Below are positions 10,013 through 12,725 of a stretch of 39,356 nucleotides of DNA, piece after piece. The position numbers and the translations under genes are program-made. Source of the DNA: a bacterium. Its GTDB lineage: Bacteria; Patescibacteriota; Microgenomatia; UBA12405; BS750m-G30. The notes under the pieces were generated by a model. That model had not been told where the DNA came from. It saw only the letters and a program-made list of their open reading frames with translations, and ran no database searches. Each line of letters begins with the position of its first letter. Positions within the stretch are counted from its first letter, which is position 1. The DNA lies in contig JAGGVZ010000019.1 of assembly GCA_021157735.1 (NCBI GenBank), positions 1-39,356 on the forward strand, written 5' to 3'.

Positions 10013-10100
10013 CTCCGGCTTTCGACAAAGTCGAAACGTCGGAGTCGCCTCCCTTTACCTTCACCCAACCGGCTGGCAGGGATCAGATAAAGTTTGGCGA
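10013..10100 (-). other. ~88-nt expansion segment in 23S domain V
   Basis: It lies between the conserved blocks CUGCGAGACUGACGAGUCGAGC and GAUGCGAAAGCAGGUC. E. coli has only ~10-15 nt here; this gene has a long foldable insert (UCGCC...GGCGA stem plus a CGAC-UUU-GUCG tipped hairpin). Confidence 0.6.
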
Positions 10101-12329
10101 GCTCGACTCGTCAGTCTCGCAGTTAGGCTAGCTTTTGCCTTTGCACTTACACTCCGATTTCCATTCGGAGTAAGCTAACCTTTGTACGCCCGCGTTACCT
10201 TTTAGCAGGCGGCTGCCCCAGCCAAACTGACCGCCAAGCACTGTCCCCGTCCGCGTTTCCAGCGGACATAGGTTAGGTTCAGGAATGATGAAGGGTGGTA
10301 TTCCACTGGTGTCCGACGTGACGTCGGACTCCCACCTATTCTCGACAGTCATCAAACCATCCCCAATGCTAAGCTTCAGTAAAGCTCCACGGGGTCTTTT
10401 TGTCCTGCAGTAACTAACCGGCATCTTCACCGGTATTTCAATTTCGCCGGACAGAGGGTCGAGACAGTTGCTCGGTCGTTGGGCCTTTCATACCGGTCGG
10501 AACTTACCCGACAAAGGACTTCGCTACCTTTGGACGGTTAGAGTTACCGCCGTCGTTCACCGGGGCTTCGGTTCTCCGCCCTCCGACGCAACGTCGGAGG
10601 ACGAATCCCCTTAACCTTCCGGCACCGGACAGGCTTCAGCCCCTATACATCCCCTTACGGGTTTGCAGAGACCTGTGTTTTTGGTAAACAGTCGCCGAGC
10701 AGTCTTTCGCTGCGGCCCCGACGTGACGTCGAGGCAGGGCATCTCCCGAAGTTACGCCCAGCTTTTTTGCCGAGTTCCTTGACCCTCCTTTATCCGACCG
10801 TCTTCCCGTTCTCCGGGTGCCCACCAGTGTCGGTTTGCGGTACGGACGCCTCTCTTTCTCTGCACGAAGCTTTTCTCGGCGCCAGAAGTCAGCTGACTTC
10901 TCCGACAAACGTCGGAGTCGCGGCTAGCCTCGCCTTAAAACGAGACGGCGGATTTCCCTACCATCTCTAGCTTGGCTAACCGATGCGGCAGTTTCACTAC
11001 CACACCCAGCCTATCCCAACGCGTCACTCCCTGCATGATAACGAAAGAGAGACGGGGCCGGAATATTAACCGGCTATCCATCGGGTACCCCCGACATCAC
11101 GTCGGGACTCCCCTTAGGCCCGCCTAACCCTCAGCCGACAAACGTTGCTGAGGAAACCTTGGGCTTTCGACGGTCCGGATTCTCACCGGACTTACGCTAC
11201 TCATGCCGGCATTCTCACTTCCCAGCGCTCCACCCCGACTTTCATCGGGACTTCACCGCCCTGGGAACGCTCCCCTACCCTCCGACGTAACGTCGGAGCT
11301 CCGTCTTCGGTAGCCTGTTTAAGCCTCGTTAAATTTTCGGCGCAGTTAACCCCCTCCGACAAACGTCGGAGTTCGACCAGTGAGCTGTTACGCTTTCTTT
11401 AAAGGATGGCTGCCTCTAAGCCAACCTCCTGGCTGTCTAGGGTTAACCACCTCCTTTACCACTTAACTTAAGTCCCGACGTAACGTCGGGACAGGCATTT
11501 GGAGACCTTAGACGGGAGTCTGGGTTGTTTCCCTCTTGCCTAACCAGCTTAGCCCGGCTAGGCTGACTGCCTCGCTAGAACACCCGGTATTCGGAGTTTG
11601 GTTAGACACTGGAGGTTGCCCCCCAAATGCCTATCCAGTCGCTCTACCCCCGGGTGCCATCACGAGACGCTATACCAATATATATTTCGGGGAGAGCCAG
11701 CTATCTCCGGGTTCGATAGGCATATTACCCCTAACCACAGGTCATCCGATAGGATTGCAGCCCTAACCGGTTCGGGCTTCCCCCCGACTTTCGTCGGGGT
11801 TCACCCTGCCCATGGTTAGCTCACCCGGTTTCGGGTCTCTTGCCAGCCGCTAAACGCCTTATTCAGACGTTTCGCTTTCGCTCCGCCTCCGTCCGAATTG
11901 CTCCGGACTTAGACTCGCGACAGGCAAGAACTCGCCGGCTCATTCTTCAATAGGCACGCCGTCAGTCCGACATAACGTCGGACCTCCGACTGCTTGTTAG
12001 CAAACGGTTTCAGGTTCTATTTCACTCCCCTCCCGGGGTTCTTTTCACCTTTCCCTCGCGGTACTATCCGCTATCGGTCGGCAAGAGTATTTAGCCTTTC
12101 CGGGTGGCCCCGGAAGATTCCCACGGAATTTCGCGTGTTCCGTGGTACTCAGGTATCCTGCACCGCTGTACTCAGTTTTCGGATACAGGGCTTTCACCTT
12201 CTCTGGCTACCTATTCCAAGGTATTCTCCTAACCTTTCCAGCGGGGGAAGCAGGACCCTACAACCCTCCGACGTAACGTCGGAGTTTGGGCTGTTCCCTG
12301 TTCGCTCACCGCTACTAAGGGAATCACAC

Positions 12330-12511
12330 CTCGCCCTCCGGGCGAGAAAGCCCTAAATCCTAATGACCTAAATCCTAAACAATATCTAACGACTAAAAAT
12401 TTAAATGCCCAAAATAAAAAATGTTTTTTGGTTATTGAGTCATTAGAGTCTTGAATTTGTTTAGGATTTCGGATTTAGAAAATTAGAGCTTCCTTGTCCG
12501 AAGGACGAGGA
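12330..12511 (-). other. Intervening-sequence-like insertion in 23S domain I: AT-rich ~135-nt inverted-repeat element (12354-12488) flanked by two GC mini-hairpins (12330-12346, 12491-12511)
   Basis: The insert interrupts the conserved GAGGAAAAGAAA...GAUUCCC region. The arms ctaaatcctaaacaa / ttgtttaggattt are complementary. The element is built from CTAAATYC octamers and is homologous to the 16S insert at 22629-22760. Confidence 0.75.
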
Positions 12512-12725
12512 TTTTTTGTTTTCTTTTCCTCCGGGTACTGAGATGTTTCAGTTCCCCGGGTTCCCCTCCGACGTAACGTCGGAGGCTCCGATTCAACATC
12601 GGAGCGGGTTTCCCCATTCGGAGACCGCCGGATCATCGGTTGCAGACACCTCCCCGACGAGTATCGCCGTCTGCCGCGTCCTTCTTCGGCTCTTGCCGCC
12701 AAGGCATCCACCGTTTGCTTCAGTT

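Follow-up and report, generated by a model that had tools for sequence, protein, structure and literature searches.

Helices of ribosomal RNA are a textbook case of structure kept by covariation, in which each helix has its own sequence. Short hairpins of constant sequence are known from other settings. Fungal, algal and sponge mitochondria carry GC clusters, double-hairpin and repetitive hairpin-forming elements, which are short G+C-rich palindromes in A+T-richer genomes; they are sporadic, differ in copy number between close relatives, merge and nest, lie also in variable parts of structured-RNA genes, and have no transposase of their own (PMC4478555; PMC2800124). In bacteria, the repetitive extragenic palindromes (REPs), their REPIN arrangements and the GTAG- and CGTC-tagged repeats are stem-loops of 20–40 nt, with a stem of 8–9 bp and a loop of 2–5 nt; some families are common to distant taxa, copy number varies between strains, and the CGTC type has no dedicated transposase (PMC3733652). 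Here we describe a hairpin of 18–19 nt, the cassette, that caps about twenty variable helices of the 16S and 23S rRNAs encoded by a 39,356-nt contig (JAGGVZ010000019.1, assembly GCA_021157735.1; "the window" below) from a bacterium of the candidate phyla radiation (CPR, or Patescibacteria). Judged from sequence comparison, its occurrence in rRNA, RNase P RNA, the glmS ribozyme, pseudo-copies of tRNAs and terminators speaks less for ordinary rRNA evolution than for a hairpin element, so far undescribed, that spreads by copy-and-paste. In the literature on CPR rRNA, repeats and hairpins, which we consulted without a general web search, we found neither the cassette sequence nor a description of it.

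The original prediction, made from the window alone, was that one stem caps many unrelated helices of the 23S rRNA. We confirm this, and the feature extends to the 16S rRNA, whose five copies (four of them strict) had gone unreported. The window contains 15 matches to the strict pattern CCGAC-N3-6-GTCGG, of which 11 lie in the 23S gene, all within the stretch first flagged, and four in the 16S gene (21688, 21996, 22353 and 22867), well above the mean of 0.05 and maximum of 1 seen in 100 dinucleotide-preserving shuffles. Relaxed copies at 10716-10735 (CUCGAC/GUCGGG) and 11233-11251 (CCCGAU/GUCGGG), a nested pair at 10013-10044 and a 16S copy at 21408-21425 raise the count for the 23S gene to ~14 and that for the 16S gene to 5. 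A further match at 9840-9860 is an ordinary conserved helix (H91) and was excluded. Folding makes every copy the apex of a longer helix; together with the alignment to E. coli, it gives in the transcript a G+C-rich stem of 6–9 bp with a loop of 3–5 nt that closes a shortened or variable peripheral helix. These stems fall below the extended stem, ~20 bp or more, of an intervening sequence (IVS). The alignment likewise bears out the claims that copies replace peripheral, length-variable tips and that two of them are net insertions, here placed as new hairpins after E. coli positions 1012 (H41) and 1113 (H42 3' strand).

The exact repeats that had been noted are real and slightly longer than stated: the copies at 10900 and 11354 share 19 nt, those at 11280, 12266 and 12566 share 21–22 nt, and two 16S copies (21686 and 21994) have an identical 19-mer. 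Selection on pairing in the RNA, also proposed from the start, is supported by the single-transition variants in rRNA, which, read on the RNA strand, give nine G-U pairs and one A-C, with the exception that A-C stands at the loop-closing position of two 16S copies. The remaining 34,056 nt of the window contain no copy with up to one mismatch, as claimed, and there the half-site CCGAC occurs at expectation (25 observed, 27.7 expected). CCGAC/GTCGG and the 6-mers being at expectation outside rRNA, we rejected an uptake signal or a repair-driven enrichment of half-sites for this genome.

The cassette is found far beyond this window. The exact 17-mer TCCGACGTTACGTCGGA occurs in at least 120 stretches of species-representative genomes; hand arithmetic with equal base frequencies predicts ~70 chance matches in the whole 596-Gb collection. 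The 19-mer with a free centre base occurs in at least 120 stretches in a metagenome scan. Across 124 genome copies among the matches listed, the positions flanking the 17-mer (-1/+1) are C/G in 87 and G/C in 18, and the sequence beyond the 19-mer is unrelated, with no conserved bases; hence the unit is a sharply bounded 19-mer. Its canonical DNA form, CTCCGACGT-N-ACGTCGGAG, is a perfect 9+1+9 palindrome, which less often has G...C ends. Any of the four bases can stand at the centre (T53, A35, C18, G17, among the matches listed), an 18-mer without a centre base is also present, and the loops GUUAC and GUAAC are both found in RNAs of known strand. The cassette is G or C at 12 of its 19 bases, in a genome of ~0.43 G+C with rRNA at ~0.55. 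In the 1.75 Mb of loci that we fetched (labelled L001 and so on; 246 of them in the set searched by tblastn), the cassette family is by far the commonest perfect hairpin. A second perfect hairpin, CCTGCCTGCC...GGCAGGCAGG, is much rarer, at 15 loci (L188, L212, L055 and 12 others).

Most of the matches listed are from Patescibacteria, in many classes, and only about one-tenth of the copies lie in rRNA, often at the same helices as in the window (H10, H25, H45, H63, H78, h6, h17 and h44). Rfam models place others in RNase P RNA, exactly at P3 in L074, at P12 and another helix in L111, and at two helices in L089, one of which is P18 with its functional GUAA loop retained; in the glmS ribozyme the cassette is in P1. 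Further copies form the G+C core of terminator-like stems or the apex of unrelated repeat hairpins, including inverted pairs of GTCATTGCGAG...CGAAGCAATC. The original prediction would have been undone by a motif equally frequent outside rRNA: in the window there are no such copies, but across lineages the restriction to rRNA fails, given those in RNase P, glmS, tRNA pseudo-copies, terminators and repeats.

Several groups of loci share more than the cassette. The repeat family GTCATTGCGAG-(variable hairpin)-CGAAGCAATC, often in inverted pairs 30–40 nt apart, has the cassette as one of several alternative apices (L004, L033, L059, L117, L052, L076, L173, L180, L227 and L233), and in L049, L079 and L232 a second GIY-YIG subfamily is followed, 35–51 nt downstream, by a relative of this repeat (CGTCATCCAGAGG...). 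Elsewhere the cassette (HP) has conserved flanks in groups of loci (L128, L139 and L223; L149, L218, L236 and L171; L183, L201, L203, L240 and L245), with forms such as ATACCGTGGGAAGTC-HP-TGACCCCGTAACGAC, CCCCGTTAGAAG...CTTCTAACGGGG and GGGAGCA-HP-GAGGG. These flanks suggest unannotated structured RNAs or repeats that may use the cassette as a cap; L103, related to them, has no Rfam match at the gathering threshold.

We rejected a phage origin, since 2.9 million viral contigs contain a single exact 17-mer. The cassette is also present in two records that were deposited as whole chromosomes (CP011210, titled a complete genome, and CP066689). Some matches are labelled as belonging to other phyla. 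Records titled "uncultured Gammaproteobacteria" or "Clostridia bacterium" (L009, L011, L114) have rRNA just 67–74% identical to that of E. coli, and the 16S of L009 and L011 is closer to the CPR window (76–77%), so that these taxon labels look wrong, as probably do those of other TPA_asm records. A range beyond Patescibacteria is unproven because several of the records so labelled have CPR-like rRNA; the check covered records labelled Gammaproteobacteria and Clostridia, among labels that also include Omnitrophota, Endomicrobiia, Planctomycetia and others.

The cassette is also found repeatedly at the anticodon-arm position of tRNA-like sequences that are partial duplicates of a neighbouring intact tRNA. 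In these pseudo-copies (Val-TAC, Ile-TAT, Ile-GAT, Pro-CGG and Asp-GTC) the 17-nt anticodon arm is exchanged precisely for the 19-mer. We considered and rejected unusual functional tRNAs: most of the sequences get no call from ARAGORN and one is called "tRNA-Stop(tta)", and they are partial duplicates of the real tRNA next to them. In most cases the real tRNA and the pseudo-copy are separated by an open reading frame (ORF) of ~90 aa of the GIY-YIG family (PF01541), which takes its stop codon from the D-arm remnant. In the fetched loci, such an ORF lies 7–51 nt from a cassette in 8 of the 15 tblastn matches, and when six homologues were fetched by protein alone, four loci had a strict cassette and two had variants, at the anticodon-arm position. 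The module of tRNA, GIY-YIG gene and pseudo-copy covers at least four tRNA identities and protein identities down to ~41%; it is seen at L034 3100-3760, L026 400-860, L179 1380-1980, L220 4480-5060 and in L248, L254, L255 and L259. The window has no GIY-YIG gene. Searches for other candidate agents gave no clear lead in these loci. Clustering of the genes near copies returned spurious rRNA-encoded ORFs and ordinary housekeeping genes only, and tblastn with two RAYT/HUH transposase queries gave nothing convincing (no match in the window and two weak matches in the 246 loci).

Related 23S genes, found through the synteny of the S1 gene with 23S, show that the cassette comes and goes. A sister strain (L001, 23S identity to the window 99.1%) has 12 copies in its 23S gene, L124 (84%) has six, L027 (82%) and L126 (81%) have four each, and L125 (83%) and L127 (80%) have none. 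Copy-bearing states are scattered over both main clades of the 23S tree, and the H41 and H42 hairpins are gained or lost among relatives as whole units; on these comparisons, cassette turnover is fast. In cassette-free relatives the same tips bear hairpins of the same size that often differ by transitions alone (UCAAU/AUUGG, for instance); other occupants in relatives are a CCGCC/GGCGG stem or an A+T-rich IVS. We rejected the idea that every genome has its own "dialect" of caps, as neither cassette-free relatives nor E. coli have a dominant stem, the CCGCC/GGCGG recurrence being weak, and we likewise rejected a footprint left by the A+T-rich IVS family, whose ends share no sequence with the cassette.

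Between the window and the sister strain the loops differ and the presence of copies does not. Of the 29 differing columns in the 23S alignment, 15 fall in the hairpins, which make up 8.7% of its length (binomial p = 3e-9). The changes are clustered, with two or three in each of four loops and no loop with exactly one: GUUAC vs AUUU, GUUAU vs GCUGU, GUGAU vs GUUAC, and GUUU vs GUUAC. With a neutral divergence of 8.5% (four-fold degenerate sites), the probability of this configuration under independent substitutions is ~2e-4 by hand calculation. Three of the four changes create or erase identity, in that one strain has the canonical loop or the loop of a sister copy, and two of the changes, when L124 serves as outgroup, have the look of a return to the canonical palindrome. 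Copies nested within the loop of another copy are found in the window and L001, and in L159, L163 and L224.

We read these hairpins, with moderate confidence, as a REP-like mini-palindrome that is born at the DNA level, copied into helix apices and kept there by selection on RNA pairing. New or refreshed copies would arise in DNA as perfect 9+N+9 palindromes and be written into the apices of pre-existing hairpins of structured-RNA genes, occasionally as a new hairpin. Most probably, sequence would pass from one copy to another by short-patch gene conversion or by template switching during replication; a sequence-specific agent may take part, with the small GIY-YIG nucleases the only candidate seen. 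After insertion, pairing selection in the RNA would keep the stem, single changes surviving only as G-U, and the loop would drift neutrally up to the time when the copy is renewed or replaced. Selection at the RNA level accounts for the occupied positions being apical ones on peripheral helices only. In the Shapirobacteria-like lineage of the window there may have been a recent burst or homogenisation within the rRNA genes. Bases beside the palindrome centre cannot pair in an RNA hairpin, and palindromy through the loop therefore argues for a DNA-level origin beside RNA-level selection. Together with the sharp 19-nt boundary and the presence in pseudo-tRNAs and repeats, it is hard to get from the needs of RNA alone and fits a DNA-level cassette that is born perfect and decays in its loop. 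Ongoing copying or conversion is in keeping with the patchiness, the gain and loss of whole hairpins, the nesting, and the clusters of changes that lead toward the canonical form. Of the three explanations first offered (a mobile or copy-pasted mini-hairpin, gene conversion among helices, or landing sites for a stem-specific factor), copy-and-paste or gene conversion fits best, given the bounded 19-mer, patchy presence, clustered loop changes and nesting; the palindromy through the loop had been missed.

A number of observations weigh against the copied palindrome and bring forward its main competitor. No target-site duplication or conserved flank was seen in the 124 copies among the matches listed, the 1,637 ORFs that lie within 1.2 kb of a copy showed no recurrent neighbour family when clustered all against all, and the window encodes no transposase, nuclease or other candidate agent. 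In the loci of the relatives there is no copy outside 23S (~83 kb of non-rRNA DNA of copy-bearing genomes, including the window); an element that inserts into any hairpin should hit intergenic hairpins too, so that confinement to rRNA calls for local conversion or for selection. The window and L124 have six orthologous copies in common, with identical stems and a different loop in every case, while H34 and H46 covary over the same distance, a combination that sequence-specific selection on the stem fits as well as homogenisation does. That different CPR classes have one and the same 19-mer is, moreover, difficult to account for unless some sequence-specific factor is conserved among them. Were such a factor to read the stem, the rRNA restriction, the stem identity without covariation and the cross-class 19-mer would be explained as well or better. 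It is possible, if distinctly less probable to us than copying, that a protein or RNA of Patescibacteria recognises the YCCGAC/GUCGGR stem, much as SLBP or a coat protein recognises its RNA hairpin or operator, and that selection places and keeps the stem on stable RNAs, with suggested roles in protection, assembly or localisation of ribosomes, RNase P and ribozymes. Besides the six orthologous stems, the identical 19-mer and the confinement to rRNA in this clade, such a ligand would account for the pairing selected on the RNA strand and for the same stem with a functional GUAA loop in P18 of RNase P. It would not need a palindromic loop, both loop orientations or an 18-mer without the centre base; a common RNA function is hard to imagine for partial tRNA pseudo-copies, selfish-looking repeats and terminators; the close relatives L125 and L127 manage with no copies at all; and a candidate binding protein was not found.

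Copying could also be driven, and we think this unlikely in its specific form, by small homing-type GIY-YIG endonucleases for which the palindrome is the recognition or immunity site: dimers, on the symmetric DNA site or on extruded hairpins, would cut DNA at hairpin apices, repair from other copies would spread and homogenise the palindrome, and the tRNA modules would be the home of the gene. The proximity of PF01541 ORFs (7–51 nt, 8/15 matches), the four strict and two variant cassettes recovered by protein alone over four tRNA identities and to ~41% protein identity, and the perfect palindrome expected for a dimeric enzyme speak for this, but most cassettes, and all of those in the window, have no such gene nearby, the downstream hairpin could be a terminator or part of the element's homology arm, and no biochemical specificity is known for these ~90-aa proteins. 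A broader proposal, as doubtful to us as the ligand site is, is a Patescibacteria "hairpin-swapping" system, in which a dedicated agent would overwrite apices with one cassette and continually homogenise the dispensable tips of essentially all structured RNAs phylum-wide, from rRNA, RNase P and ribozymes to tRNA pseudo-copies and terminators; the agent would read hairpin apices or the 19-bp palindrome in DNA, and the tRNA-linked GIY-YIG nucleases are again the only candidate seen. Explanations that do away with both copying and a ligand fare much worse. Ordinary descent with convergence would have lost tips closed by short G+C-rich clamps in an A+T-rich genome, from a small sequence space and shared ancestry. 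CPR rRNAs are indeed known to lack stem-loop tips (PMC9297842), the same-sized hairpins of cassette-free relatives often differ by transitions only, and a second G+C-only stem, CCGCC/GGCGG, also recurs. We nevertheless find convergence very improbable in view of at least 13 identical stems including a fixed A-U pair, identities of 19–22 nt between unrelated helices, the same 19-mer in RNase P, glmS, tRNA pseudo-copies and terminators of other classes, the sharp unit boundaries, the clustered multi-base loop changes, and the lack of a dominant stem in E. coli or cassette-free relatives. No more credit is due to processing sites or mini-IVS, cut or removed by an endonuclease to give fragmented rRNA: the same tips (H25, H45 and the H15 site) hold IVS in relatives and short IVS are reported there for CPR (PMC11270868), yet stems of 6–9 bp are shorter than the substrates known for RNase III and cleavage would have no obvious role in the helices of RNase P and glmS. 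For an artefact of assembly or library only the oddity of a constant palindrome can be cited, and we find it hardly credible when the hairpins appear with natural-looking variation in independent assemblies of two strains, in metagenome-assembled genomes from many groups and assemblers and in CP011210 and CP066689, and when the copies follow the secondary structure of the RNA, their decay running through transitions and G-U pairs.

The 23S rRNA gene (9495..12734, minus strand) has 3240 nt against a 2925-nt model (Rfam LSU_rRNA_bacteria, 2385 bits). All copies are on the minus strand; E. coli coordinates were computed by alignment of both rRNAs, and helix names follow what we take to be the standard numbering for those coordinates. 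From the 5' end of the transcript, the canonical cassette CUCCGAC-GUUAC-GUCGGAG forms the tip of H10 (12566..12584; E. coli ~159-175) and stands at the H15 site (12266..12284; E. coli ~275), a helix absent in E. coli. GUCCGAC-GUUAU-GUCGGAC forms the H25 tip (11965..11983) and CCCCGAC-GAAA-GUCGGGG that of H34 (11782..11799). The new hairpin of the H41 region, after E. coli 1012, is UCCCGAC-GUUAC-GUCGGGA (11473..11491; absent in L126, L027, L127 and E. coli), and that on the H42 3' strand, after 1113, is CUCCGAC-GUUU-GUCGGAG (11354..11371; absent in L124, L126, L127 and E. coli). The canonical cassette returns at the H45 tip (11280..11298), where L126 and L027 have an intervening sequence, and the H46 tip is a degenerate cassette-like copy with a U-G pair, GUCCCGAU-GAAA-GUCGGGG (11233..11251). 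The H34 hairpin is perhaps an ordinary homologue because all relatives have a CGAYGAAARUCG hairpin there, and H34 and H46, with their GAAA loops and similar hairpins in all relatives, may both be such homologues.

Farther along, UCCCGAC-GUGAU-GUCGGGG forms the H50 tip (11089..11107) and CUCCGAC-GUUU-GUCGGAG the H59 tip (10900..10917), both with the loop GUUAC in the sister strain. A truncated H63 ends in GCCUCGAC-GUCAC-GUCGGGG, with a U-G pair (10716..10735; a strict copy in L001), H68 in CUCCGAC-GUUGC-GUCGGAG (10581..10599), and GUCCGAC-GUCAC-GUCGGAC stands in place of most of H78 in the L1 stalk (10311..10329). The nested copy (10013..10044) has an outer CUCCGAC...GCCGGAG (GUCGGAG in L001) and an inner transition variant, UUUCGAC-UUU-GUCGAAA. 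It lies at the tip of an 88-nt insertion (10013-10100, minus strand) after E. coli position 2368 that has no E. coli counterpart; this is a lineage-specific expansion segment, since it is present in all six Shapirobacteria relatives with variable sequence. The 16S rRNA gene (21332..22951, minus strand; 1620 nt; Rfam SSU_rRNA_bacteria, 1399 bits) has GUCCGAC-GUGAC-GUCGGAC in place of the h6 tip (22865..22883), CUCCGAC-UUCAC-GUCGGAG in place of most of h17, which is 37 nt shorter than in E. coli (22351..22369), GUCCGAC-AUUAC-GUCGGAC both at the h26 tip (21994..22012) and in h40 (21686..21704; E. coli ~1150-1175), and a degenerate CCGGC-GUUU-GUCGG at the shortened tip of h44 (21408..21425), where other CPR 16S genes have the exact 17-mer (L007, L041). 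Published work on CPR rRNA reports that tips are lost or shortened (h44, H78) and that H25 and H45 can hold short IVS (PMC9297842, PMC11270868); introns are described as well, but no common cap.

Both rRNA genes exceed the length of their Rfam family models, and both contain A+T-rich insertions of ~150–190 nt on the minus strand, at 12330-12515 in 23S and 22620-22773 in 16S, which look like IVS. They share 31 nt (94%) and 30 nt (90%) and are therefore of one family; insertions with similar ends (...TTTCTCGCC-N-GGCGAGG) occupy the H15, H25 and H45 sites in relatives. The 16S and 23S genes are unlinked, with 8.6 kb between them (9495-22951) filled by at least four protein genes, and no 5S rRNA was detected anywhere in the window. 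Among its three tRNA genes, tRNA-Ala(UGC) is directly upstream of 23S, and a tRNA-Ile with the anticodon UAU, rare in bacteria, adjoins 16S (23148-23221, plus strand); tRNA-Ile(UAU) is the species most often linked to GIY-YIG modules in relatives (L034, L026, L248, L254). The S1 gene lies directly downstream of 23S, with synteny kept across Shapirobacteria relatives. Its protein has Candidatus Shapirobacteria as best named relatives (69–72% identity), and the short S1 beside 23S, two PBP1A proteins and a VirB4-like ATPase are typical of Patescibacteria; by its genes, the source is an uncultivated Shapirobacteria-like (CPR) bacterium. The VirB4-like conjugal-transfer ATPase gene (CD1110 family; 26723-28591, plus strand) adjoins the two PBP1A-type genes and may be part of a type IV secretion or competence-like apparatus common in CPR. 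Two ORFs have no family match, one of 902 aa (14715-17423, minus strand) and one of 573 aa (12991-14712, plus strand). Between the window and L001 the DNA of the first is just 82.5% identical, with flanking genes at 97%, and the second aligns over one 426-nt stretch only (91.5%); both look like fast-evolving, possibly surface proteins.

That about twenty tips in two rRNAs have one sequence, and that the same 19-mer caps unrelated RNAs across a large and poorly understood bacterial radiation, matters whichever reading holds. If the cassette is copied, it would be the smallest repeat element known to us that colonises RNA genes, in a helix-apex niche that is new; it would offer a concrete mechanism for the remodelling of the reduced CPR rRNAs, and would introduce a non-tree-like signal into the alignments, probes and primers with which the 16S and 23S of these lineages are studied. 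If it is a ligand site, there would be a factor that touches the ribosome at many positions, and the hairpin-swapping system, if true, would amount to a mobile or driven element of a new kind, at home within RNA secondary structure. Either way, the cassette gives a simple sequence handle on organisms that are hard to study, and the link between GIY-YIG genes and tRNAs is a testable lead to an agent.

Set beside the systems described at the outset, the cassette shares with the organellar repeats a G+C-rich foldable palindrome and a sporadic distribution with nesting; for the cassette, movement is a reading from comparisons. Those repeats are mostly 30–100 nt, mostly intergenic and lineage-specific in sequence (PMC4478555; PMC2800124), whereas the cassette is bacterial, 18–19 nt long, confined in this clade to rRNA helix apices, and the same in sequence across many Patescibacteria classes. 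REPs are extragenic, usually in head-to-head dimers or clusters, and end in a GTAG or CGTC tag to which a tail is often added; the cassette has neither tag nor tail, is single, lies inside RNA genes at helix apices, and has no convincing RAYT match in the window or the 246 loci. A miniature inverted-repeat transposable element (MITE) has terminal inverted repeats and a target-site duplication, and the cassette is wholly an inverted repeat without a flanking direct repeat. It fails the REP and MITE definitions because it has no tag, is not extragenic and makes no target duplication. Bacterial 16S and 23S IVS use the same variable tips (H25, H45 and others) and are likewise sporadic among relatives, but they are 90–200 nt or more, A+T-rich here, with long stems and excision by RNase III, and the 19-nt cassette has no sequence in common with their ends.

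Free-standing GIY-YIG homing endonuclease genes are known in tRNA clusters, such as that of phage T4 SegB, and resemble the modules described here in combining a small GIY-YIG gene, an intact neighbouring tRNA gene and partial tRNA duplicates. The modules described here differ in being bacterial and chromosomal and in having the anticodon arm of the duplicates exchanged for the cassette. There may also be resemblances to the sites of MmeI (TCCRAC) and Hpy188I (TCNGA), the IS608 target TTAC and domain V of group II introns, leads only, on which nothing above relies. Template-switch, or quasi-palindrome, mutation creates and repairs perfect hairpins in RNA genes and would explain inverted repeats that run into the loop, multi-base "compensatory" changes and clustered strain differences (PMC8794818). 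It copies local sequence, and an ectopic donor or a sequence-specific agent would therefore be needed to put one 19-mer at unrelated sites and in unrelated genomes. Like the cassette, tetraloop hairpins are a small set of caps reused at helix tips and exchanged in evolution; recurrent stable ones in rRNA (UNCG, GNRA) were reportedly noted by Woese and colleagues in 1990. In tetraloops, however, the loop recurs and the stems covary freely, whereas in the cassette the stem recurs and the loop varies. Small hairpin-forming repeats were thus already known; what is new is the niche, at helix apices, and the unusual phylogenetic breadth.

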